Shown here: in pieces, positions 37,386 to 52,595 of the stretch
Layout of the letters: each line of letters starts with the position of its first letter
How positions within the stretch are numbered: position 1 is the stretch's first letter
NCBI GenBank assembly: GCA_001823065.1
Contig: MHTJ01000003.1
Location: 253,283-317,282, forward strand
Source: Candidatus Vogelbacteria bacterium RIFOXYD1_FULL_44_32
GTDB lineage: Bacteria > Patescibacteriota > Minisyncoccia > Phycocordibacterales > XYD1-FULL-46-19
DNA length: 64,000 bases
Direction: 5' to 3'
Program-made: the position numbers and the translations under genes
The notes under the pieces: generated by a model
The model's input: the letters and a program-made list of their open reading frames with translations, nothing else
What the model was told of the DNA's origin: nothing
Database searches by the model: none

Positions 37386-38153
37386 CTAATACTGCCTCTT
37401 CATCTTGGAGATGACGTGGGCCAGCTCCTTGACGACAGGCAACAAAATGTCGTGGTGGCAGTTCTCGATCCGCCAGAAACCGATGCCGGAATGTGCCACC
37501 ATTGTGTCCCAGCGCTTGTTCCGCGCTTCGCGGAACTCGAGCTCAGATTCGGTCAACCCCCCACGCAATCCCATCCACTCGACCCGGTGGGGCGAGTCGA
37601 TATACAGAGGCACAATGTCCCCCTGGTCAATCCAGGTCACCTCGAGACACTGGAGGATCGTCTCGGGGGTGGCAGTCAAGATACCCACCACCGGCTGAGT
37701 AATAGCCAGGTGGATATCCTCGACAGTGGTACCGTAGAGATACTGTCCCACTGTCACCACCCAAGCAAACTCCCCTTGGGCGGACAAAGCCTTGAACTCC
37801 GCCTCAGTGTGGTGGATATACTCCCCACGGAAGTCGCCCGCCCGCTCTGGCCGAGTGGTATGGCTCGGTATGAGCCGAAACTTGGGCGCCAACCCATAGT
37901 GGGCGGACAACAGATCATCCTCGAAGTACCGGCTCGCTGCCCGCAGGGTATCCTCGTCGATACTGGACCCGTTGTACTCCCGGAGGAGGATACGGAGGAC
38001 AGTGGACTTCCCAGAGCCCATCGTCCCGCTGGGGATCAGGATATGACCCTTGCGAGGCCAATCTTTCTCCGGGTGCCAGCGAAAGCGCTTGGGCTGAGCC
38101 ATCTGAGCCACTTCCCCCACTTGGATCATTTCCCTCATTGTTGTCGGCGGCAT
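37386..38153 (-). CDS. gmk: guanylate kinase, compositionally atypical (about 58% GC)
   Basis: Start at MPPTTM, preceded by AAGGAGA. P-loop GTMGSGKST, guanylate-kinase signature SHTTRPERAGDFRGEYIHH and the YGT motif. Strong G/C bias at third codon positions. Confidence 0.75.
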   Translation of the reverse strand: MPPTTMREMIQVGEVAQMAQPKRFRWHPEKDWPRKGHILIPSGTMGSGKSTVLRILLREYNGSSIDEDTLRAASRYFEDDLLSAHYGLAPKFRLIPSHTTRPERAGDFRGEYIHHTEAEFKALSAQGEFAWVVTVGQYLYGTTVEDIHLAITQPVVGILTATPETILQCLEVTWIDQGDIVPLYIDSPHRVEWMGLRGGLTESELEFREARNKRWDTMVAHSGIGFWRIENCHHDILLPVVKELAHVISKMKRQY

Positions 38154-38276
38154 GTTTTTCTCCTTCTTTTGCCGATGTAAACAAAAAAAGACCACCGAGC
38201 AACAGGCTCGTGTCTGTTTATAACCTTACCACACATAGCCACTTTAAGCTAGGGTAAAATCGCCCAGCTCAGGACT

Positions 38277-39353
38277 TTACTCTTCATCCACTGGTTTATC
38301 TAAAATCAGGGTCTCTACCCCCGCCGACTCGCCCGCAATGCGAAACACATCTTTATCAATCTTTTTAAATTCTTTGTAGGCATTGTTATAGTGGCTCACG
38401 GTCGTCCCTAAAGAACCGCCCATTTTCTGCATAAAGCTGTCATAAACGCCAATATGTTTACCGAGCTCCTCTACCCTCTTCCTTATCTCTTTGGCCGATT
38501 CTTCAATCTGTAGTGCTTTTAGCCCCTGCAAGACTGTTTGTAAATAGGCCAAGAAGGAAGTGGGCGAAACAATAATGACATGGTACTTGTTGGCGGCGCG
38601 CTGGATGAGGTTTTCGGTATCGTCCGTGATGGCGCCAATTTTGTTGACCAACAGGTCGTAGTAAATGGCCTCGTGGGGAATAAACATAAAAGCAAAGTCT
38701 AGTGTCCCCTCGCTTGGGCGAATATATTTGGCTGTTTCTTGAATCCGATTTTTCAGGTCGTTTACAAACAGTTTTTCCAGCCGGTCGCGCTCGGCTTCGT
38801 TTTTCTCTTCCGCCACACGGTTGTAGTTTTCCAGTGAAAACTTAGAGTCCACGGGAATAATTTTATCTTTCACAAACACCGCCGCGTCCACTATTTCCCC
38901 ATCGGCAAACTTGTACTGCATTTGAAAACCCGTCGGCGGTAAAATATTTTTTAGCAAAGTTTCCAAATAATATTCACCTAGTATCCCCCGCTGTTTGGGG
39001 TTCTTCAAAATATCTTGCAAGTCTTTTAGCTGGTCGGTAAAGTTCATGACTTGGCGGTTGGTCTCGTCGAGCTTGGTGAGACGCTCGGTGACATCGGTCA
39101 CTATTTTCATGGAGTCGGAAAATTGGGTCCGCATGGAGTCTTGCATAAAACGCGACGACTCTTTTAGCTCGGTCCGGACATGACCCATACCGTCATCCAT
39201 TCGACGCAACATCTCATTCAGTTGGTTTTGCATTAGCACCAAAGATTCACTATTCCCCTCAGTCGGCTTTTTTCCCCGCGCTAAAAATATAGTGATTATA
39301 GCCACCAAGGAGCCCCCCACCACTACGCCTGCAACGATATAGACAATTTCCAT
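38277..39353 (-). CDS. rmuC: DNA recombination protein RmuC
   Basis: 358 aa. N-terminal TM helix, coiled coil, and the RmuC C-terminal nuclease-like region (GEYYLETLL..., FAFMFIPHEAIYYDL). Confidence 0.88.
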   Translation of the reverse strand: MEIVYIVAGVVVGGSLVAIITIFLARGKKPTEGNSESLVLMQNQLNEMLRRMDDGMGHVRTELKESSRFMQDSMRTQFSDSMKIVTDVTERLTKLDETNRQVMNFTDQLKDLQDILKNPKQRGILGEYYLETLLKNILPPTGFQMQYKFADGEIVDAAVFVKDKIIPVDSKFSLENYNRVAEEKNEAERDRLEKLFVNDLKNRIQETAKYIRPSEGTLDFAFMFIPHEAIYYDLLVNKIGAITDDTENLIQRAANKYHVIIVSPTSFLAYLQTVLQGLKALQIEESAKEIRKRVEELGKHIGVYDSFMQKMGGSLGTTVSHYNNAYKEFKKIDKDVFRIAGESAGVETLILDKPVDEE

Positions 39354-39533
39354 TTGTTTATAATATCAGTAAGCTAGGATTAAATCTAATCACCAAAAAG
39401 ACCACCGTGAGGTGGCCTTTAGGACATCCGAAGATTTGATTCAAAGGATGTCTAATAATTCTAGACCTCTGACAAATAATTAAAATAGCAACTAATAAAT
39501 ATCTGTGGACAAGTCCAAAATCCCCTTTACTGG

Positions 39534-39788
39534 CTAGGATAAATCGCTGTCTATTTTCACCTCCTCAGCTTCGGCACTGGTCGCCAAGTCCAGGATGTCA
39601 GCTGGGGCCCTTGAGGCACTTTTTTCGGTACCATTTTTACCATTACTCCCACTTCTATACTTAGCCGGTAAAAGCTCTTGGGCTAGCTCAAAATCCTTGT
39701 CCTCGGCCTCTTTGACGAGTCTCCTACCCTCTTCATCGAAAATAGGAGTCGGTTTCATCGCTGGGTTTTCTATACCAAATTTTTTCAT
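39534..39788 (-). CDS. hypothetical small protein (84 aa)
   Basis: ORF-track entry. A U-run terminator follows on the minus strand. Confidence 0.4.
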   Translation of the reverse strand: MKKFGIENPAMKPTPIFDEEGRRLVKEAEDKDFELAQELLPAKYRSGSNGKNGTEKSASRAPADILDLATSAEAEEVKIDSDLS

Positions 39789-39902
39789 ATACCCCTTATT
39801 ATACGCCTAAAAAAATTAAACGGAATATATTTGCAAATTTTCATAATCGGGCTAAGATGCAAGCAGAGTATTTCTCACCAACCCAAGAAAGGGGGTACCG
39901 CG

Positions 39903-40001
39903 ATGAATGCCATGTTTTATTTGTTGGAATTTCTCCAGCAAGTTGCCCAGTGGTTGTTGGCCATCTTCGACTTGTACGAGTTGGTCTTGGGGTTCTTTTA
40001 A
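39903..40001 (+). CDS. candidate 32-aa hydrophobic peptide immediately upstream of the BNR lipoprotein gene
   Basis: RBS GAAAGGGGG lies 7 nt upstream of the ATG. Peptide MNAMFYLLEFLQQVAQWLLAIFDLYELVLGFF. Confidence 0.3.
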   Translation: MNAMFYLLEFLQQVAQWLLAIFDLYELVLGFF

Positions 40002-40017
40002 CTGAAGGGGTCTAATC

Positions 40018-40554
40018 GTGAAGAACATATTTGCCTTTATTTTCATCCTCCTCGCCTGTGGCTGCGCTCCAACGGTCAGCCACGAGGCGACATCCGGTAA
40101 CGCCCAATTCCGGATTGAGGGCACAACCCTCCAACGCCAAATTGACGGCGGCGGCTGGGAAAACCTGCAAGAAGCCACGGCCGTAAGTGCCGACCAAGGC
40201 AAGGTGTACATGATTAGTGCTGGCAATGTCTACGAGTCAACTGACCTCGGCGACACCTGGCAAGCAATCTTTTCGCCCTATGACCCCGCCACCGATGTTG
40301 AGGCGGTTGGTGGTTACCTGTGGGTTAGCGTCGCTAGCTGGGGTACATCGTCGGGTATCAACCGCCGTGATTCAAACGGCAATTGGGAAAACCTGCTTTG
40401 GAACAGCTGCTATGCGGTGGACGTCAACCCACGCCACCCAGACAAGCGAGCCAAAGCTCTGGTCAAAGAGGGTGGCTATGACCGCTACTGGGTGTACGCC
40501 CCCCTCTTTCCACCATACCTTTGGGTCAAGCTGTGGCCAGCGTTTACGCCATAG
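40018..40554 (+). CDS. lipoprotein with BNR/Asp-box repeat (STDLGDTW), compositionally atypical (about 55% GC)
   Basis: GTG start after AAGGGG. Signal peptide with lipobox LLACGC. Asp-box SxDxGxTW. Confidence 0.6.
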   Translation: MKNIFAFIFILLACGCAPTVSHEATSGNAQFRIEGTTLQRQIDGGGWENLQEATAVSADQGKVYMISAGNVYESTDLGDTWQAIFSPYDPATDVEAVGGYLWVSVASWGTSSGINRRDSNGNWENLLWNSCYAVDVNPRHPDKRAKALVKEGGYDRYWVYAPLFPPYLWVKLWPAFTP

Positions 40555-40575
40555 CGTCAGAGTCCACCCGTTCCC

Positions 40576-40610
40576 ATGTCCCCCGAAGAATCGGGGGACA
40601 TTTTTCATTT
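40576..40610 (+). terminator. intrinsic terminator ATGTCCCCCG-AAGAAT-CGGGGGACAT + TTTTT
   Basis: Follows the lipoprotein stop. Confidence 0.75.
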
Positions 40611-40651
40611 TAGAATTTTTTAGGTTAGCATATTAAACCTTAAACTATTTG

Positions 40652-40723
40652 TGACCCTACAGAGAATCGAACTCTGATTTAAACCTTGAGAAGGCCTTGT
40701 CCTAACCGTTAGACGATAGGGCC
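40652..40723 (-). tRNA. tRNA-Glu (anticodon CUC)
   Basis: Cloverleaf folded by hand: acceptor GGCCCTA/TAGGGTC, D-arm GTCT-AACGGTTA-GGAC, anticodon stem AGGCC/GGTTT with loop TTCTCAA, T-arm CAGAG-TTCGATT-CTCTG, discriminator A. CCA is not encoded. Confidence 0.85.
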
Positions 40724-40863
40724 AAATAATTGTTAACATCGTGAGTATAGCGAAAAAAATATTTAAAGACAATTGTATTCTATTGTCTACCATAATCCCT
40801 CGATTAGCCGCCTTTTACTTTTACTACCCAATCCGCTAATATTTTTATAGAAAGGAGGCCCCT

Positions 40864-41046
40864 ATGCGCCAAAGATCAGACTTAGAGCTCTCCGCCGAGA
40901 GTGGAGAGTTCCGGCCGTTCATGACCGCCGAGGAATACTACGACTTTCAGGACAGGTTTCAAAAACAGGTTGGCCCCGAGCTCGACCGCCACGCTGAAGC
41001 CAGGCAAGCCAGTGAGAAAGTGGCGAGAGAACATTATGTCCACTAA
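40864..41046 (+). CDS. hypothetical 60-aa acidic protein whose 3' end is duplicated about 760 bp downstream
   Basis: Strong RBS AAAGGAGG. GC-rich. Confidence 0.5.
   Translation: MRQRSDLELSAESGEFRPFMTAEEYYDFQDRFQKQVGPELDRHAEARQASEKVAREHYVH
40974..41039 (+). repeat. direct repeat copy 1 (66 bp; also the 3' coding end of the 60-aa ORF)
   Basis: 63/66 identical to 41738-41803. Confidence 0.85.
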
Positions 41047-41125
41047 CCTCTGTTCGCCCCCTACCCGCGTCTGCTCCCCCGAGCCGGCGCGGATTTTTTA
41101 TTGGGACAGGAGCGCAAACAAGTTT

Positions 41126-41677
41126 TTAGATTAGTTTAGTTTCTAAAAATTTAACGATATGACTAACAAGCAAATAATAATAGTTTGCAATAATTGTCGA
41201 AATAGCTAAAACGCTGAAAATTATAGTCGAGACTGATAGAAATCCATATTTTTGAGCAAAAAAATAAATAACTAGGGCATATCCTGCACAGACAACCAAA
41301 GATATCGCAATCATTTTATGTTTTGTCTTAATAATCAAATCGGCCCCAAATCGTTTATACCACCATTTTTCTACAAAATAAACTATCAAGGTGATAAATA
41401 AGTAAGCATACCAAAAAAAATTTTCTAAATGATAAGTTCTTTGATACTCACCATCAGCAATTGAGAATCCTTGAATTAAAAAATTAAGAATGTTTATAAG
41501 GAAGTCACCAGAATTTACCAAGACAAGCGATATTAAAGCTCCAAATCCTAAGAAAATTGATACGACATTTAATGTGTAGACAAAACTAAATTGACTGGCC
41601 TTAAATAGAAGTAACAATTCTCGCCAAATCATTCTGACAAGATCGGGTTTTTTGTTCACATCTGGAACGATGGACAT
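41126..41677 (-). CDS. hypothetical polytopic membrane protein, AT-rich (about 32% GC), bracketed by the 66-bp direct repeats
   Basis: 183 aa with about 5 TM helices. Composition differs sharply from its GC-rich flanks. Confidence 0.55.
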   Translation of the reverse strand: MSIVPDVNKKPDLVRMIWRELLLLFKASQFSFVYTLNVVSIFLGFGALISLVLVNSGDFLINILNFLIQGFSIADGEYQRTYHLENFFWYAYLFITLIVYFVEKWWYKRFGADLIIKTKHKMIAISLVVCAGYALVIYFFAQKYGFLSVSTIIFSVLAISTIIANYYYLLVSHIVKFLETKLI

Positions 41678-41737
41678 AATAGGCTTATTATAACAATTTT
41701 TATGTTAACTACCCAAAAAAAAGTAAGCTAACCTCTC

Positions 41738-41810
41738 CCCCGAGCTCGACCGCCACGCTGAAGCCAGGCAAGCCAGTGAGAAAGCGGCGAGGGATCATTA
41801 TGTGTCCTGA
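41738..41810 (+). repeat. direct repeat copy 2 (66 bp) and a remnant 3' gene fragment (encodes PELDRHAEARQASEKAARDHYVS*) with its own terminator at 41822-41850
   Basis: Three mismatches against copy 1. Reads in frame to a TGA. Confidence 0.8.
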
Positions 41811-41934
41811 CACTGCTCCCCGCTCAATCCCCGCGCCTACGGCGCGGGGATTTTACTATTTACAATTTACATTTTTTATGTTAGATATATTGCCAGTAAA
41901 ACTGAACCAAAACAACTGAAGAAAGGAAAACCAA

Positions 41935-43191
41935 ATGCGTGATCGGTTGAAGTTTGACGTCACCAGACTCCCAAACGGCATTACTATCTACGCGATGCCT
42001 TGGGATGTCCCCTTTGCCGACATTCGTTTACTTGTCCCCGTCGGACATATAAACAACGTTGGTAAATATTTACCAGGTTCCGCTCACATGCTGGAACACT
42101 TGGTATTTCAACGTTCCGAGGCATTCCCCAAGCCCAGATCTTTTTCTCAAACAATCGAAATGGATGGGGGCGATGCCAGTGCTGGTACATCATTTTCGGT
42201 CACATCGTATGAAATGACGATTGCTGCCGAAGATGTTGACGAAAAACTTGCTTCTTTTATTGAGCATATCTTCCATCCCGTTATCGTCACCGCCGACATC
42301 ATGCATGAAGTCGGCATCATTAGTAACGAAAGACGGAGAGCAATGTCACCTTGGTACCCCGGTGAAGACAAGACCGAGCAACATTGTCGCCTGTATTGGA
42401 AACGCGACTCAGCCCTTTCTATTCGCCAAAGGTTTGGCGACGATCAGGACTTGGCCTTAATGGGGGAAAAGGATCTCCTGTCCTTGCACCAGAACTATTC
42501 TTCCCCAGACACCGTATTGTTTGTGGGCGGAAATTTCCATTTGGACACGATTGTGCGTGTAATGGAAAAAATCAAAACCACACCCCAACGGTTGGAGGAA
42601 AATTTTGAACACCTAAGCTGGGTCAACCCGGAGTATCACGAGGTGTTATGTGAAGAATCAAATCGGTTTTTTTACCACCTTGGTGGAATTGCCGAACCAT
42701 TCTCACCCTTGAGATTTTTTGGGACAAAATTCTTAGGTACCCTACTGACCAATACCGTACAAGGTACATTGTCAGACTGGCTCCGCCACGAACGGGGCTG
42801 GGTCTACAACATAGGGTTTACTGTCAACCGGTCACCAAAACAACGGGCCAACGACTGGGAACTGTATATCCCCCTCAGTGAGTATGAACAAGTGAAGGTG
42901 GTGAGAGGAGAAATTCATGACCGAATACTGAGGGCGATCTCGGATCGTGATCTAATCAACCGAGAGTTGCACCGACAACTTTCAGCCCAGCTCTTCAGCT
43001 ACCAGACATTGGGTTCGGCGATCGATGAGGGAATTTACAATCTCTTAGCCTTTGGCCAACCAATTTCAGAGACAAAAAAGCAAGACATTCTCTGCCAAGC
43101 GGCCAATTCCGAATTTCTCACAGTATTGTACGAGGAATCCTGGATACCCGGCGCCTCCGGAGAATTTCTGGCCCTGCCGGAAAATGTTTGA
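41935..43191 (+). CDS. M16-family (insulinase/pitrilysin-like) zinc peptidase
   Basis: 418 aa. Inverted zinc motif HxxEH (SAHMLEHLVFQRSE). Confidence 0.8.
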   Translation: MRDRLKFDVTRLPNGITIYAMPWDVPFADIRLLVPVGHINNVGKYLPGSAHMLEHLVFQRSEAFPKPRSFSQTIEMDGGDASAGTSFSVTSYEMTIAAEDVDEKLASFIEHIFHPVIVTADIMHEVGIISNERRRAMSPWYPGEDKTEQHCRLYWKRDSALSIRQRFGDDQDLALMGEKDLLSLHQNYSSPDTVLFVGGNFHLDTIVRVMEKIKTTPQRLEENFEHLSWVNPEYHEVLCEESNRFFYHLGGIAEPFSPLRFFGTKFLGTLLTNTVQGTLSDWLRHERGWVYNIGFTVNRSPKQRANDWELYIPLSEYEQVKVVRGEIHDRILRAISDRDLINRELHRQLSAQLFSYQTLGSAIDEGIYNLLAFGQPISETKKQDILCQAANSEFLTVLYEESWIPGASGEFLALPENV

Positions 43192-43200
43192 TCCACAAGT

Positions 43201-43238
43201 CCCGGGCGCTCCCAAGCGCCCGGGCTAAATTTTTATAT
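43201..43238 (+). terminator. intrinsic terminator CCCGGGCGCT-CCCA-AGCGCCCGGG + AAATTTTTAT
   Basis: Follows the M16 peptidase stop. Confidence 0.7.
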
Positions 43239-43322
43239 TTAATTTTTATTTTTGTCACTATATCCCATCAACAGCGTTCTAAAATAGACGCACAGTCTGG
43301 TTTATCTTATAATCATAAGTAT

Positions 43323-43694
43323 ATGAAAAAACTTCAAATATTTTTAGCCCTTGGTATTACTATTCCATATATATTAGCCTCCCTATATGGATTATATGCC
43401 TACGGAAATGATATGGATCCTGGTGATTGGGATGGTATCGAAATTATAATGTTTCTTATGTTGATTGCTTGGCCACTTATAGCGATTTGCTTCCTCTCTT
43501 TTATCTCTAGAATGATTTATTTGAAAGTAAAACAAAGACCGGTCTGGCCTGAATTTATCTGCTTTACAAAATCACTAATAATATTAGGGGTAATAGCAAT
43601 CGGCCTCTGGAATTTTGCTGGTTATTGTAATAAAAATAAATGTGGTTTTTTACCAACAAGAGAAATTCCTAAAAATTCAATGTACGATAATTAA
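43323..43694 (+). CDS. hypothetical membrane protein, AT-rich (about 33% GC)
   Basis: Start at MKKLQIFLALGITIPYIL. Three TM helices and a Cys-rich C-terminus. Confidence 0.45.
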   Translation: MKKLQIFLALGITIPYILASLYGLYAYGNDMDPGDWDGIEIIMFLMLIAWPLIAICFLSFISRMIYLKVKQRPVWPEFICFTKSLIILGVIAIGLWNFAGYCNKNKCGFLPTREIPKNSMYDN

Positions 43695-43716
43695 CTTTTC
43701 CCCGCCTCTCTCTTTG

Positions 43717-43973
43717 GCGCTAATCCAGAAAATTTTGATTATTGCGAGAAGGATAGTAAAAATTAATGAGCCAAGTCGAAAAATTAAACTGTTTGACCCT
43801 GTGGAATAAAAACTTTAGATTTTAGAGAAATAACCTATCACAACACCTATTTTTTTAGTTTGTATTACTTTCAACTTACCTATTCCACGGGGGAGTTTTT
43901 AATTTTTCGCAAACGAGGTGAATATAATTTTCCTAGACTGAAGCATACTAATCAAAATTTTCTGGATTAGCGC
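43717..43973. mobile_element. MITE-like element: 257 bp bounded by perfect 25-bp terminal inverted repeats (GCGCTAATCCAGAAAATTTTGATTA / TAATCAAAATTTTCTGGATTAGCGC), no ORF inside
   Basis: Read directly from the sequence. The right repeat overlaps the murF stop codon (43967-43969). No clear target-site duplication. Confidence 0.55.
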
Positions 43974-45280
43974 TTCAGCCACTCCTCTTCTTGCCGGCAC
44001 AACAGCTCCTCGGCTCTAAGCGGCTCGGCCATTATTTCCACCACCGCTTTTTCCATCCGCATCCCCTGCGACCCTTTTATTAGCACCACATCCCCGGCTT
44101 CAATTATTTTATCCAGCGCCTCACCAGCCTCGCTCGAATTATCAAAATGTTTGATAGCCTCTTCGGCCAAACCTATTTCTCTGGCTTTTTCTTCTATAAA
44201 TTTTGAGCGCAAGCCAACCGTCAGCAACATATCACAATTTTTCGCAACTAGCTCCCCGGCCGCGCGGTGAGCCTCGATCGTATGTTCCCCCAGCTCGAGC
44301 ATATCGCCCAGCACCGCAATTTTTCGGCCCGTAGACTTGATTCCCCCAACTGTAAGCAGAGCAGCCTCGAGCGCGGCTGGCGACGAATTGTAGGTATCAT
44401 CGAGAATAACTGAATTTTTGACTCCCGCCAAAAGGCGCAAGCGCCCCGGTGGAGTTTCGTGTAAATTTTGAATGGTTTCAGCGACCACCACAATATTTAA
44501 ACCCTCGGCGATAGCCACGGCAATGGCGCCTAAAACCGAATATATTTGATGCTTGCCTAATACGCCCCTCACTCTAATCGGGATAATTTGCCCTCGATAA
44601 TCGACCTTAAATGACAACCCGATTGGTAAATCTAGGCCATCTTTATTTTCATACAAAATTTGGGCATTAGATGCTCTAAGGTCGGCCGGCTCATTAAAAC
44701 CATAAGTAATTTTAGCGTGGGGTAAAATACTGATTTTGTCATGCAAAGTAGTATCATCGGAATTGTAAATAATATAGCCATCTTTCCTCACCCCTTGCGC
44801 GAGTGCTATTTTTTCCCTGACCACAGCTTCCCGGTCAGAAAAGAACTCAATATGAGCGGGAATATTAGGTAAGCGGGTCAACACCCCAATATCGGGCTTT
44901 AGCCATTTGGTCATTTTCCGGATATCCCCCGGTCGGTCGGCCCCCACTTCTAGTACCAGCCGTTCGGGGTAAAGGTCATGTTTTAGGCCCTCCAGAGCCC
45001 CTAGAACAATGATTTTCAGCCACCCTAGAGGATTTAGCCAGGCCGATTTTAGACCTAGGATCGTCAGGGGTATACCCATTTCACTGTTATAGCTTTTTTG
45101 GCTTTTACGAGTCCGGAAATGCCCCGCGAGAACGGTAAAAATAGCATCCTTGGTCGAGGTTTTGCCCACACTACCAGTAATGGCAATAATTTTAGGCCGA
45201 TTCTTTTTCAGCACTAAAATCGACTCCTTAATTAGAATCGCCGAAATAATTTGTTTAAAAATATCCTTGACAGCTGACAT
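43967..45280 (-). CDS. murF: UDP-N-acetylmuramoyl-tripeptide--D-alanyl-D-alanine ligase
   Basis: 437 aa. Mur ligase P-loop ITGSVGKTSTKDAI and MurF-like DDTYNSSPAALEAAL. It is the last gene of a minus-strand mraZ-rsmH-ftsL-ftsI-murF array. Confidence 0.85.
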   Translation of the reverse strand: MSAVKDIFKQIISAILIKESILVLKKNRPKIIAITGSVGKTSTKDAIFTVLAGHFRTRKSQKSYNSEMGIPLTILGLKSAWLNPLGWLKIIVLGALEGLKHDLYPERLVLEVGADRPGDIRKMTKWLKPDIGVLTRLPNIPAHIEFFSDREAVVREKIALAQGVRKDGYIIYNSDDTTLHDKISILPHAKITYGFNEPADLRASNAQILYENKDGLDLPIGLSFKVDYRGQIIPIRVRGVLGKHQIYSVLGAIAVAIAEGLNIVVVAETIQNLHETPPGRLRLLAGVKNSVILDDTYNSSPAALEAALLTVGGIKSTGRKIAVLGDMLELGEHTIEAHRAAGELVAKNCDMLLTVGLRSKFIEEKAREIGLAEEAIKHFDNSSEAGEALDKIIEAGDVVLIKGSQGMRMEKAVVEIMAEPLRAEELLCRQEEEWLKR

Positions 45281-49547: not shown

Positions 49548-49651
49548 TGTAAATCACCTCCTTTCAGTTTTTCTATTTAAATTACTACAACAAAAAAATA
49601 CTCACGTCAAGAGTTTTTAATTGGGAACTATATACTTAATTACCCTAGGGA

Positions 49652-49840
49652 TTAATATGACCTATCAGGGCTACCAACAACTTCTCTGGCATCCAGGTAC
49701 TGATTACATTCATATTCAGAAAAACCATAACAAGTTCCTCCTTCGTCATATAAACCAGGTTCTTGGCGAATAAACATTCCATAGATTACGGCTCCAATTA
49801 AAAGCGCTAGCGCTAATAAAAGTCCTAATCCGTCTTTCAT
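49652..49840 (-). CDS. IS passenger: 62-aa membrane peptide with a Cys-containing tail (GGTCYGFSEYECNQY)
   Basis: Its ATG overlaps the stop of the upstream 45-aa ORF (ATGA), and its stop lies next to the left IR. Confidence 0.45.
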   Translation of the reverse strand: MKDGLGLLLALALLIGAVIYGMFIRQEPGLYDEGGTCYGFSEYECNQYLDAREVVGSPDRSY

Positions 49841-49974
49841 TTTTTCTTGGACTTAACTTTTAATGTTTTCTTATCCTTATACCCAGAACCAGCAATAGCC
49901 CCTAAGACTTGGTCAAAGGAGGCTGGTACTGGTTCGTGTTTCTTTGGTTTTCGTCCCCTAGTTTCTTTTTTCAT
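49837..49974 (-). CDS. IS passenger: 45-aa highly basic peptide
   Basis: MKKETRGRKPKKHEPVPASFDQVLGAIAGSGYKDKKTLKVKSKKK. Overlaps the end of the 170-aa ORF and is coupled to the next ORF by ATGA. Below the ORF-track cutoff. Confidence 0.4.
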   Translation of the reverse strand: MKKETRGRKPKKHEPVPASFDQVLGAIAGSGYKDKKTLKVKSKKK

Positions 49975-50470
49975 CAGGTTTATCTAAGTCTTCTGGCTTA
50001 AAGTTGTATTTCTCTAATAAAATATCTCTGAAATAAATACCCCCTATCCTACGCATTGTTTCAATACTCCAACCATACAAGAAAGAACTTTGCTTTATTT
50101 TTTCGTTGAAATCTCCAAAATCCACAGAGTCGAATAATTTAAAAGCACATTCTTGAATGTTGTATTGATTTTGTATATCATTTTTTGTCTCACATTCCAT
50201 AAGTAGTTTTCCTTTATTTTTGTCTATCCAGTCTTTTAGTCCACTTTCTTCTAATGCTTTAATCCCAGTTGGTTTTAATGCAATGGGAGAAGCGTTAGCA
50301 AAAGCATCATTCATTCTTCCTTCAAGTTTTGTAATACTTTCTTTAATCCAAGTTATCGAAGTTTCTATAGCAGAAAAACGACTGCCTGATTTCCACGCAA
50401 TAACAATGAGAGCACCCATTATGCCCAAAAAATAAATCCAGTCTATTTGTATTACAAGAGGCTCAGTCAT
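49958..50470 (-). CDS. IS passenger: 170-aa protein with an N-terminal TM helix, no recognisable family
   Basis: Lies 20 nt downstream of the transposase stop on the same strand. Confidence 0.55.
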   Translation of the reverse strand: MTEPLVIQIDWIYFLGIMGALIVIAWKSGSRFSAIETSITWIKESITKLEGRMNDAFANASPIALKPTGIKALEESGLKDWIDKNKGKLLMECETKNDIQNQYNIQECAFKLFDSVDFGDFNEKIKQSSFLYGWSIETMRRIGGIYFRDILLEKYNFKPEDLDKPDEKRN

Positions 50471-50490
50471 AAATATATTATAACAGATAA

Positions 50491-51375
50491 CTAAGCAGTT
50501 AATTGTTTATATAATAATTTATCACTTTTTGCAATTTTTAGTGTCACTAGGTCGAATTTCTCGGCTAGACTATCTTGACGGTTATTGAAGCGAAAGGTTA
50601 TTTCATCAATGTAGCGCTGTAAGTGCTTTTTACTCATTGAGTGATAGGTACCGTGATAATTACGCTTAAACAAAGCCCAGAAGCTCTCGATTGAGTTGGT
50701 GTGGACATTGCCACGGACATACTGCTTGCGACTGTGTTTAATTGAATCGTGCTTAAAGCCAATCCGAACTAGTTTACGATAAACACCAGCGTCATCGGTC
50801 ATTAGATAGGCTTTAGGATTAACATTTTTTGTTACCGCATTAAGAACGGTGTGTGTCTGACGGTCTGGGATTTGGAAAGCTCGAAGTTTACCGCCTCGCT
50901 CTGTCATTCCCATAACAGCCGACTTTTTTGAGAAGCCGTGTTTGCGATTATGCTTTCCACCTAGATAGGTTTCGTCAATTTCTACAGTACCAATCAGTTT
51001 ACCTTTATTTTGCTTTAGAGCTTCACGAATACGCATATCCATAAACCAAGCGGTCTTTTGGGTTACGCCGACTTGCTCGGATAAGTAAATTGAAGAAACT
51101 CCCTTTTTAGAAGTTGTCAGAAGATAAATGGCAATAAACCATTTTTGCATCGGGATTTTGCTTTCACCAAAGAGGGTGCCTGTCTTAACAGTGAAGTCTC
51201 GTTTACAGCTATCACAACGAAAGCGTTTACCGTCTTTGAAACGGAAAATCTTATTGTGCTTACAGTGAGGGCAATAGTCCCCACCAGCAAAGCGCACATC
51301 CTCAAAGTGCTTTCGACAGACTTCCTCGTTGTGGAAGTGGGATATAAATTCGGCTAAGGTCTTAAAGTTTGTCAT
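50491..51375 (-). CDS. IS1595-family (ISXO2-like) DDE transposase
   Basis: 294 aa. N-terminal zinc ribbon CPHCKHNKIFRF...FRCDSCKRDF, then IPMQKWFIAIYLLTTSKKGVSSIYLSEQVGVTQKTAWFMDMRIREA and the DDE core (TVEIDETYLGGK...). Confidence 0.92.
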   Translation of the reverse strand: MTNFKTLAEFISHFHNEEVCRKHFEDVRFAGGDYCPHCKHNKIFRFKDGKRFRCDSCKRDFTVKTGTLFGESKIPMQKWFIAIYLLTTSKKGVSSIYLSEQVGVTQKTAWFMDMRIREALKQNKGKLIGTVEIDETYLGGKHNRKHGFSKKSAVMGMTERGGKLRAFQIPDRQTHTVLNAVTKNVNPKAYLMTDDAGVYRKLVRIGFKHDSIKHSRKQYVRGNVHTNSIESFWALFKRNYHGTYHSMSKKHLQRYIDEITFRFNNRQDSLAEKFDLVTLKIAKSDKLLYKQLTA

Positions 51376-51814
51376 ATTTATAGCTTATACCTATTCGATA
51401 GGGTTGTCAAGTTCCTTAAATAAATAGGGGTAGGTTGACAGCTTTTCTAGATTTGGTATTATTTACGGTAGCCTTTCACAATAAGTGGGACTGGTACTCC
51501 CCAATAAGAAGCAAACCAAAGACAGAAACCTGTCTCAAGTGTGGCGTGGGTATCTAAAAGTACCATACGCCTAGTGCGTATTCCCGAAAGGGTTTGCTCA
51601 CCTACGTCACACTTGGAACGGGTTTTTTCTGTAAACGAAAACACCCCCGTGAGGGGGCGGTAAGGTGACTGGAAGCCGGAAACTATCAAAATGGGGATAA
51701 GGGAGAGACAGACTCCCAAAACTTGTACAAGGTCCCAAGTCCTACTGCAGTAGGGCGAACTAAAGCTTCGAAGCGTGTCACTTTAATTCCTCCTCCTTGG
51801 GGGTGTTTTTGTAA

Positions 51815-51900
51815 GCGCCGATGACGAAAATGGTATCCGTCCTCGTTCTGTAAACGAGGGTTCCTCCCAGAACTTACGGGTTCGAATCCCGTTCGACGCA
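51815..51900 (+). tRNA. class II tRNA-like element (long variable arm), possibly a pseudo-tRNA, inside the IS
   Basis: Canonical T-arm ACGGG-TTCGAAT-CCCGT. Acceptor GCGCCGA/TCGACGC has one C-A mismatch. 3-bp D-stem with an 11-nt D-loop as in tRNA-Leu/Ser/Tyr. 17-nt variable arm. The anticodon loop TCTGTAA has C at position 33, so identity is unclear. Confidence 0.3.
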
Positions 51901-52085
51901 CAGAGTATTGACGAAAAGCGTCATCTGTATCCTAGCAGGATATGGGGACTTTGTCAATATTCAAAGTATAACACTTGGGGAGTTGTCCACGCCAACATTT
52001 TTATCAATTTTTCTGTTGATAAGGTGTACAGGGGCTATAATGGCAGCTTTTTATTATGGTAGGCGTAGTATGTTATAGTTAAGAA

Positions 52086-52244
52086 ATGACAATTATACCC
52101 TATATTATATTGGCAGTTTTGCTTTTTGGTTTGTTTAATGCCTACAGAGATTTTAAGAGTCAAATCGGATGGCTACATAGAAGGTTGGAGAAATTGGAGA
52201 AGAAAGTTGGTATTAGTGAGAAGGAAACTCAAGATTTACTCTAG
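52086..52244 (+). CDS. IS-internal small membrane peptide (52 aa)
   Basis: MTIIPYIILAVLLFGLFNAY... N-terminal TM helix and a charged C-terminus. Confidence 0.35.
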   Translation: MTIIPYIILAVLLFGLFNAYRDFKSQIGWLHRRLEKLEKKVGISEKETQDLL

Positions 52245-52293
52245 GGTAACGGATATAAATTTTAGAAAACATTAAAAGGTATAAAAATAAAAA

Positions 52294-52458
52294 ATGACAT
52301 TAATAATTATATTAGCTTTGGCTGTAATAATCTTTGGCCTTTTTGTTATAAGTAAGCAGTTAGGTGATACTTATAAATTACTTGACGGAAAGTTTAATAA
52401 TAATAAAGACGAGTCAGAAATTGTTGGTAAAAAGCATAAAATTGATTTAGAAGCCTAG
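52294..52458 (+). CDS. IS-internal small membrane peptide (54 aa), paralogous in architecture to 52086-52244
   Basis: MTLIIILALAVIIFGLFVIS... Its stop lies inside the right terminal repeat. Confidence 0.35.
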   Translation: MTLIIILALAVIIFGLFVISKQLGDTYKLLDGKFNNNKDESEIVGKKHKIDLEA

Positions 52459-52595
52459 GGTAATTAAGTATATAGTTCCCTTTTAATTTGTATTTTTCCC
52501 AACTTAGAGAGCTTCCTTCCTTTCCGACCACTGTAAAGGGATAGTAAAAATCAAGGGGTGAATAAACAGGCCGGTGGTCAATGATATTTTTTCTA

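Follow-up and report, generated by a model that had tools for sequence, protein, structure and literature searches.

A 764-bp segment in the ~0.7-Mb genome of Candidatus Vogelbacteria bacterium RIFOXYD1_FULL_44_32, a member of the CPR found in the Rifle aquifer, is present in one strain and precisely absent from a near-identical one, and we regard it as rather likely that this segment is a miniature integrated islet without a recombinase (CIME-like) that occupies the 3' end of a 60-aa gene particular to this lineage. The filled allele lies in the window, that is, the whole 64-kb stretch of DNA that was analysed. Such an islet would consist of three parts: a 66-nt target-like segment (47 nt identical to the gene, then three differences) together with a substitute stop codon and a terminator; one cargo gene of foreign composition on the opposite strand, preceded by a promoter-like extended -10 box; and a 9-mer, CTAACCTCT, a copy of which would lie on either side of the homology segment if the islet were circular. 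Gene gain is little understood in CPR bacteria, which are mostly uncultured and whose genomes are tiny; the locus provides a strain-level gain or loss that is resolved to the base pair, with both alleles known. The features of the locus are listed below in window coordinates.

40651..40723, minus strand: tRNA-Glu(ctc), the anchor of the region, inverted relative to the related loci L006 and L007
40864..41046, plus strand: target gene of 60 aa, here as the filled allele; its final 7-8 codons (…EKVAREHYVH and stop) come from the insert
40974..41039, plus strand: repeat copy 1, attL-like; its last 19 nt hold three insert-type variants
41040..41803 (equivalent phasing 40974-41737), no strand: presence/absence segment of 764 bp, missing from the empty allele L025
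41043..41051, plus strand: first copy of the CTAACCTCT motif, overlapping the TAA stop, 3 nt past repeat copy 1
41065..41099, plus strand: terminator 1, a nested hairpin (about 41065-41092) and then T6, insert-borne; the loop holds TCCCCCGAGC
41126..41677, minus strand: cargo gene for a 183-aa all-helical hydrophobic membrane protein; GC 0.30, GC3 0.27
41687..41695, minus strand: TGTTATAAT, a putative extended -10 box that lies 9 nt ahead of the cargo start codon; a consensus match only
41728..41736, plus strand: second copy of the CTAACCTCT motif, 1 nt ahead of repeat copy 2
41738..41810, plus strand: repeat copy 2 with stop codon, attR-like; a remnant (…EKAARDHYVS and stop), the same as the functional gene end in L025
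41826..41852, plus strand: terminator 2, native to the 60-aa gene; 12-bp stem, 3-nt loop, z = -5.3, with the architecture seen in relatives

The starting observation of an earlier, sequence-only reading of this DNA, namely 66-bp direct repeats with three mismatches, was recovered at exactly the same coordinates. The two 66-nt copies, 40974-41039 and 41738-41803, are identical at 63/66 positions, have a spacing of 764 and lie 698 bp apart. All three mismatches are at one end, as the first 47 nt match at 47/47 positions and the remaining 19 nt at 16/19; beyond the 66-mer, identity between the copies is near-random, and the comparison of tail with tail is only marginal (z = 2.6). The 47-nt identity was matched in 0 of 100 shuffles. 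There is no third copy of the repeat within the 64 kb of the window, folding of the 66-mer is no stronger than that of its shuffles (z = -0.9), and an Rfam search over 39000-44500 returned the tRNA-Glu only, with no match at the repeats.

Copy 1 had been described as the 3' coding end of a 60-aa ORF, and this ORF was found at 40864-41046. Its protein has two homologues only (P0002 and P0003, with 70-73% identity) among 5.8 billion proteins and protein clusters, both of which are encoded in one other MAG, GCA_964539475.1. A profile search with the gene gave no further homologues, and there was no match for the protein in Pfam, NCBIfam or PADLOC. Because the differences from the two homologues are biased by codon position (10/12/25 and 11/10/25), and because length, start, stop and ribosome-binding site are conserved with them, we take the ORF to be a real gene, though an orphan. 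Copy 2, described earlier as an in-frame remnant of a gene end, reads PELDRHAEARQASEKAARDHYVS and a stop, lacks a start and has an in-frame TAA stop four codons upstream; it is therefore a remnant. The sole ORF between the copies is, as had been claimed, the AT-rich gene of 183 aa on the minus strand (41126-41677, 30% GC). A GC hairpin terminator had also been proposed after each copy, and a GC-rich hairpin with a run of T does follow both. This holds well for terminator 2, which is canonical, whereas terminator 1 folds (-20 kcal/mol, z = -2.4) but is less canonical and was missed by the consensus scan.

The strongest evidence for an insertion comes from an uninterrupted locus with a single 66-mer, which had been set beforehand as the test of this idea and was found in contig L025, where exactly 764 bp are absent. 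L025 (ENA ERZ27254750) is a single short MEGAHIT contig of 2,824 bp, assembled from another sample with a final k of 141. Its positions 1-1526 correspond to window 39514-41039 and its positions 1461-2824 to window 41738-43101, so that one 66-mer of the copy-2 type is directly followed by terminator 2 and the M16 gene. The junction expected for the empty allele reads ...CAGGTTGG, then the 66-mer with the C/G/T variants, then GTCCTGAC. Besides the three variants that separate copy 1 from copy 2, the contig differs from the window by one private SNP, located in the terminator 2 stem, which amounts to 1 SNP in about 2.8 kb between the two strains. P0012, encoded on L025, is exactly the predicted hybrid of the window's N-terminal part and the copy-2 tail, with 60 aa ending in ...AARDHYVS, and differs from the filled protein by three residues within the last eight. 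Judged by this alignment, L025 is the same locus in a near-identical strain.

The filled arrangement is seen in other assemblies as well. L030, an independent JGI assembly, equals window 40990-43245 at 100% identity with no mismatch, so the arrangement does not stem from a misassembly of the source scaffold; the left junction of the filled allele was confirmed by L002 and L003. Doubt could instead be directed at the empty allele. If L025 were an assembly collapse, there would be no polymorphism, and the duplication would be a local rearrangement that has become fixed in the species, for example by partial duplication or template switching, an explanation that we consider very unlikely. It would draw on the status of L025 as a lone 2.8-kb MEGAHIT contig, on the short-snippet patchwork left of copy 2, which resembles templated junctions, and on the behaviour of other assemblies, which break at the repeat: L003 ends at 41043 and L029 starts at 41755. 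The further contigs found by way of the neighbouring 178-aa and M16 genes also stop at or inside it. However, a collapse across the 47-nt identity appears unlikely because L025 has a private SNP, is derived from a different sample and was assembled with a final k-mer of 141, longer than the identical block. The exact 183-aa protein, moreover, is recorded on no contig of that sample, though the assembly series keeps contigs of <900 bp, and a collapse would leave both the foreign GC3 of the cargo and the parallel case of L009, described below, unexplained.

The question of which gene end is native was addressed with L006 and L007, the only homologous loci. Both have a single 3' end of the 60-aa gene with one terminator, no remnant and no 183-aa gene, and these relatives differ at about 23% of sites in the repeat stretch. 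Copy 2 shares with them the GCx-Ala codon, the GTG-Val codon and the TGA stop, and copy 1 agrees at one site. The tail of copy 2 with its terminator gives z = 3.8 and 2.5 against L007 and L006, as compared to z = 1.7 and 1.0 for the tail of copy 1. This closeness to the relatives, seen at two outgroup loci and a handful of sites, supports copy 2 and terminator 2 as the resident native end, and likewise supports an arrival with the insert for the distal 19 nt of copy 1, the stop codon and terminator 1.

The same comparison bears on the possibility that the filled state is old or even ancestral, in which case L025 would be a derived deletion between the repeats that tells nothing of the origin of the duplication, and the duplication may be the relic of two paralogous copies, the second internally deleted. 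The presence of one gene end without the 183-aa gene in the relatives speaks against this, as does the foreign GC3 of the cargo, and an old duplication should not keep 47/47 identity beside tails at noise level unless gene conversion is added to the account. On the other side, direct repeats with a 47-nt identity are deletion-prone; L025 has the copy-2 variants, as expected from a crossover in the perfect block; ACTACCCAA is found 30 nt before copy 2, as if the upstream region of the gene had survived; and the excision of e14 yields just such chimeric genes. We consider an ancestral filled state rather unlikely, and it is compatible with an integrated-islet origin, since it reverses the last step only. 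The direction of this last event is drawn from the outgroups, and L025 could be the product of an excision or deletion and not the ancestral state.

The cargo gene differs in composition from its surroundings, with a GC3 of 0.27 vs 0.48-0.65 in the neighbouring genes, so its AT-richness is not just an effect of amino-acid composition. We had considered such an effect of the hydrophobic residues and rejected it, given a GC3 of 0.27 against ~0.5 in the neighbours and homologues that match their hosts only in low-GC genomes. The protein has no match in Pfam, NCBIfam or PADLOC. Its homologues fall into 7 clusters, and in an exhaustive profile search of 1.84 billion proteins the family comprised 11 representatives; it is rare and CPR-only. 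No homologue was found in the GTDB representative genomes, viral contigs held neither the cargo nor the att region, and a scan of metagenomes for the cargo returned 8 mostly short loci. The structure model (AlphaFold, with an 8-sequence alignment) is helical with a pLDDT of 50, and the family may bear on the cell-surface lifestyle of CPR bacteria. The promoter scan did not report the putative extended -10 box upstream of the gene.

A comparison of the loci that carry cargo homologues is consistent with a transfer between hosts of different composition. Where the genome is low in GC (L011-15, L018 and the left side of L008), the GC3 of the homologues matches the local value and there are no bracketing repeats; in L011-15, the homologue is in an operon with a 670-aa gene. 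In L009, a CPR genome of ~44% GC like that of the window, the homologue has a GC3 of 0.27 vs 0.41-0.48 and is bracketed by direct repeats of 74 nt, which are 89% identical and 942 nt apart. These repeats resemble tRNA-Asn in degenerate form (16/18 at the 3' end), and an intact tRNA-Asn is located next to them. In both of the two cases, the window and L009, a foreign composition co-occurs with long bracketing repeats. With one case besides the window, this co-occurrence fits a transfer of the cargo as a small islet into higher-GC hosts, and the source is probably a lower-GC CPR lineage. We also considered bracketing repeats as a universal property of the cargo gene family, and this was rejected, as L009 alone shares them.

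The sequence-only reading had gone on to propose a site-specific insertion that carries a replacement 3' end. Insertion and replacement end are supported by L025, the outgroups and the foreign GC3, but no tyrosine or serine recombinase (integrase or resolvase) was found in the insert or in the 64-kb window, so that the site-specific part of the proposal is left without an enzyme at the locus. An autonomous relative with the same att segment was found in neither the genome nor the viral collections; a degenerate pattern of the att region had matches in the orthologous genes of GCA_964539475.1 alone, and none in viral contigs.

If the segment is an integrated islet, a Campbell-type reciprocal recombination between the ~66-nt segment on a circular islet and the gene would insert it. 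At the attL side, the outcome would be the gene body, the repeat and the islet tail with its terminator, and the gene end would be altered at three amino acids; at the attR side, the islet and the repeat would be followed by the native tail with its terminator, pushed 764 bp downstream as a dead remnant. Loss would be the reverse reaction through the same repeats, and precise, with both states in the population. A circular or tandem form would be expected to show the junction ...GTAAGCTAACCTCTC, then the 66-mer with the T/A/A variants, then CCACTAACCTCT. The repeat, the two alleles, the polarity of the gene ends, the foreign composition and the lack of a recombinase in the window are shown, while the circular form, the enzyme and an insertion in place of a loss as the last step are inferred. 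As an islet with no recombinase, the segment would be a decayed att-flanked remnant that uses an integrase in trans, or it would be moved by host homologous recombination, and we consider site-specific recombination in trans and homologous recombination comparably likely. At 47-66 nt, the homology exceeds the usual length of an integrase core, and an exchange that depends on RecA explains the observations equally well.

Host recombination could also account for the locus without any dedicated element. In that case, the segment would enter and leave purely by homologous recombination, as a circularised fragment from a related donor (gene tail, terminator and membrane-protein gene) that undergoes a single RecA-type crossover in the 47-66 nt, with no integrase. 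Insertion-duplication through a single crossover is standard bacterial genetics, and the long shared segment with its perfect 47-nt block, the absence of a recombinase from the window and the weak similarity of the tails (z = 2.6), which is expected for a diverged homologous gene end, agree with it; the RmuC, RecR and DnaB genes next door are ordinary DNA metabolism genes. Nevertheless, a donor with an unrecognisable terminator should not match at 47/47 nt, since the relatives differ by ~23% there, and a donor locus with the 60-aa gene ahead of the 183-aa gene is not found among the loci of the cargo homologues. The case of L009 uses tRNA-like repeats beside a tRNA, which is a classical integrase signature, and the 9-nt motifs that flank the homology are left unaccounted for. 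We therefore judge this explanation unlikely on balance, yet one that deserves serious weight, and retain the integrated islet as the preferred reading.

The junctions themselves carry several short recurrent motifs. The octamer TAACCTCT, reported earlier after copy 1 and before copy 2, is present at both places and is really part of the 9-mer CTAACCTCT (at 41043/41044 and 41728/41729). The chance frequency of a junction recurrence like that of CTAACCTCT is about 0.0014, as a post hoc estimate. Neither the octamer nor the 9-mer is in the empty allele L025, and CTAACCTCT is for this reason not a target-site duplication. In the reconstructed circle, it would flank the homology on both sides, and we conjecture a role like that of arm-type binding sites. 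Within the 40 nt that precede copy 2 there is ACTACCCAA, which is found elsewhere only 5' of the 60-aa gene and recurs here 30 nt before the copy; this stretch then runs into TCCCCCGAGC, which is found elsewhere only in the loop of terminator 1. These CTAACCTCT, TCCCCCGAGC and ACTACCCAA snippets at the copy-2 junction may be a record of earlier recombination or template switching, and a messier origin of the latter kind would weigh against the islet.

The motif had suggested another origin, namely a transposon-like insertion with TAACCTCT as the target-site duplication; a related proposal, the alternative given in the sequence-only reading, is a tandem duplication of the gene end that was later invaded. 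The octamer does flank 677 bp between the copies, and the sole transposase in the window, about 9 kb away, is of the IS1595 type, a family that makes 8-bp duplications; its own duplication, TTTTAATT, is visible. However, the 677-bp segment has no terminal inverted repeats of the kind expected for an IS or MITE, the empty site is without TAACCTCT, and there is no allele with two adjoining copies. A recent duplication in situ should have left similar tails, but those of the two copies are almost unrelated (z = 2.6) while the strains differ by 1 SNP in ~2.8 kb. We find both of these origins hardly credible. A target-site duplication by the window's own IS1595 transposase was considered separately and rejected, in view of the empty allele without the motif and the segment without inverted termini. 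A simple tandem duplication was also rejected: the copies are not adjacent (698 bp apart), and their similarity falls from 47/47 to 16/19 to near-random.

The islet is a small, well-resolved case of an already known type of insertion, in poorly studied bacteria. Among integrative elements of the e14/icd type, the locus has the bounding direct repeats, the restored frame with a native remnant and the unoccupied single-copy site; an own recombinase beside att is missing, and the only ORF of the insert encodes a membrane protein. In E. coli, the excision of e14 at icd/icdC yields a chimeric gene with few substitutions (PMC13626634). The islet resembles e14 and phage 21 at icd in its integration into the 3' end of a coding gene, in the substitute end that keeps the gene intact and in the native end that becomes a downstream C-terminal pseudogene, with three amino-acid changes here between the filled allele and the empty one (P0012). 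In contrast, e14 is about 15 kb long and has its own integrase and excision functions, whereas the islet has 764 bp, a single cargo gene and no recombinase, and is found in a CPR bacterium whose genome measures ~0.7 Mb; its excision would be deduced from alleles and not from direct observation.

CIMEs (cis-mobilizable elements) are decayed integrative elements in which attL and attR persist after the loss of the genes for integration and transfer. They are known, for example, at the 3' end of fda in Streptococcus thermophilus. In the streptococcal literature, a CIME is an att-flanked element without integration genes (PMC5704250), and the islet shares with CIMEs the absence of integrase and transfer genes, the small cargo and the setting in a variable, accretion-prone region. 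It differs in being far smaller and in that no cognate autonomous element or integrase was found, so that an origin by decay is assumed. In Prochlorococcus, tycheposon islands accrete cargo with partial target copies between the pieces and include degenerate remnants without integrases (bioRxiv 10.1101/2020.12.28.424599). The hypervariable region beside a tRNA in a small genome is a common feature, and the L009 islet fits closely; in the window, however, the repeated target is the end of a coding gene and not a tRNA, and there is no tyrosine recombinase or replication module. Integron cassettes are alike in their size of 0.5-1 kb, in their single ORF and in their precise presence or absence, but the 66-mer has no attC-like palindrome, there is no IntI or attI (and no tyrosine recombinase) in the window, and long direct repeats are not a cassette feature. 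The cargo of the islet is also in the opposite orientation, with its own promoter-like box.

The region around the islet varies between genomes. In three genomes, the same chromosomal region is bounded by an 83/84-aa gene and tRNA-Glu(ctc) on one side and by murF on the other, while the gene content differs in each. In the window, it holds a 178-aa GC-rich lipoprotein-like gene, the inverted tRNA-Glu, and the 60-aa, 183-aa, M16 peptidase and 168-aa genes; L007 has an OLD-family nuclease gene and four other genes, followed by the 60-aa gene and a 186-aa gene; and L006 has a 195-aa gene, the 60-aa gene and a 189-aa gene. As far as these three gene orders tell, the 60-aa gene is the conserved piece in a tRNA-anchored hypervariable region.

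The combination of a substitute gene end and a displaced native end is a signature that can be used for mining CPR genomes, and for finding any recombinase involved. A wider generalisation, which we regard as unlikely and which is based on two cases, is that sub-kb single-gene CPR islets form a class of mobile cassettes, which would use a copy of a gene or tRNA 3' end (with a terminator) as attachment site, owe their movement to the host machinery or to a recombinase in trans, and build up hypervariable tRNA-anchored regions. If true, the window islet, the L009 islet and the remnant in L006 would be aspects of one system, and the CTAACCTCT repeats would be its recognition sites. This remnant in L006 is a stretch of 30 nt (IEELKAYDI and stop) from the terminal part of an HD-domain gene, of which L007 alone has an intact copy, and gene-end remnants at junctions therefore recur in the region.

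The stretch that runs from the 83/84-aa gene with tRNA-Glu(ctc) to murF (window positions 39534-43967, and the corresponding parts of L006 and L007, two homologous loci from the metagenome-assembled genome GCA_964539475.1) is hypervariable. The three genomes carry three different sets of genes between tRNA-Glu(ctc) and murF, and the tRNA-Glu itself is inverted in the window as compared to L006 and L007. Within this region, L007 encodes an OLD-family (GajA/Old-like) nuclease. A 215-aa HD-domain gene is intact only in L007, while L006 retains a 30-nt in-frame remnant of its 3' end (IEELKAYDI*; L006 1334-1365 compared to L007 7222-7251). This remnant is the second gene-end remnant found at a junction between variable and conserved DNA in the tRNA-Glu(ctc)-murF region.

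Downstream of the 60-aa gene, the two relatives have in common a promoter-like sequence followed by a leader (L006 1700-1880 and L007 7773-7985). This segment is strongly conserved, with about 83% identity between L006 and L007, and the products of the genes behind it share just 27% identity. The leader forms stems, nine pairs of which differ between L006 and L007 by compensatory changes, and a search of Rfam with it returned no matches. It could represent a small RNA, or else a structured 5' leader. In L007, an additional unit of about 190 bp, with a promoter-like box and a terminator of its own, separates the terminator of the 60-aa gene from the shared leader (L007 7550-7745). A 36-nt stretch at the terminator of this unit is repeated 884 nt downstream with 94% identity, and the second copy sits 3' of a 186-aa gene (L007 8606-8641).

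The 168-aa gene at window positions 43188-43694, which overlaps the M16 peptidase stop, is the second AT-rich membrane-protein gene in the region (GC3 0.29). Its product had no family matches, no counterpart was found in L006 or L007, and in composition it is another foreign gene of the tRNA-Glu(ctc)-murF region. Two patches (37386-38195 and 40018-40554) are GC-rich, at 55-62% GC as compared to 43.5% across the window. The first corresponds to a 269-aa gene that is guanylate-kinase-like. The second corresponds to a lipoprotein-like gene of 178 aa (GC3 0.65), which is located on the 3' flank of the inverted tRNA-Glu and is absent in L006 and L007. An AT-rich gap separates the 168-aa gene from the murF 3' end and holds a perfect 25-nt inverted repeat (43717-43741 and 43949-43973, arms 207 nt apart), whose right arm extends into the stop region of murF. 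No further copy is present in the 64-kb window, and the sequence would fit a MITE-like element or a long hairpin.

The window also contains an IS1595-family transposon, with these features:

49623-52480, IS1595-family transposon, about 2.86 kb
50491-51375, minus strand, its transposase
51815-51901, tRNA-Thr(tgt), inside the transposon

Its termini are inverted repeats of roughly 27 nt, GGGAACTATATACTTAATTACCCTAGG, flanked by a perfect 8-bp target-site duplication, TTTTAATT. A 170-aa ORF is also located within the element, and the tRNA-Thr(tgt) is an apparent passenger.

In L009, a locus of another CPR genome, the homologue of the 183-aa membrane-protein (cargo) gene is flanked by 74-nt direct repeats. 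These are degenerate tRNA-Asn-like copies, and an intact tRNA-Asn adjoins; the repeats and the tRNA gene lie at L009 2279-2352, 3221-3294 and 3493-3566. The 3' end of the L009 tRNA-Asn pairs with upstream sequence in a perfect hairpin of roughly 25 bp around a terminator.
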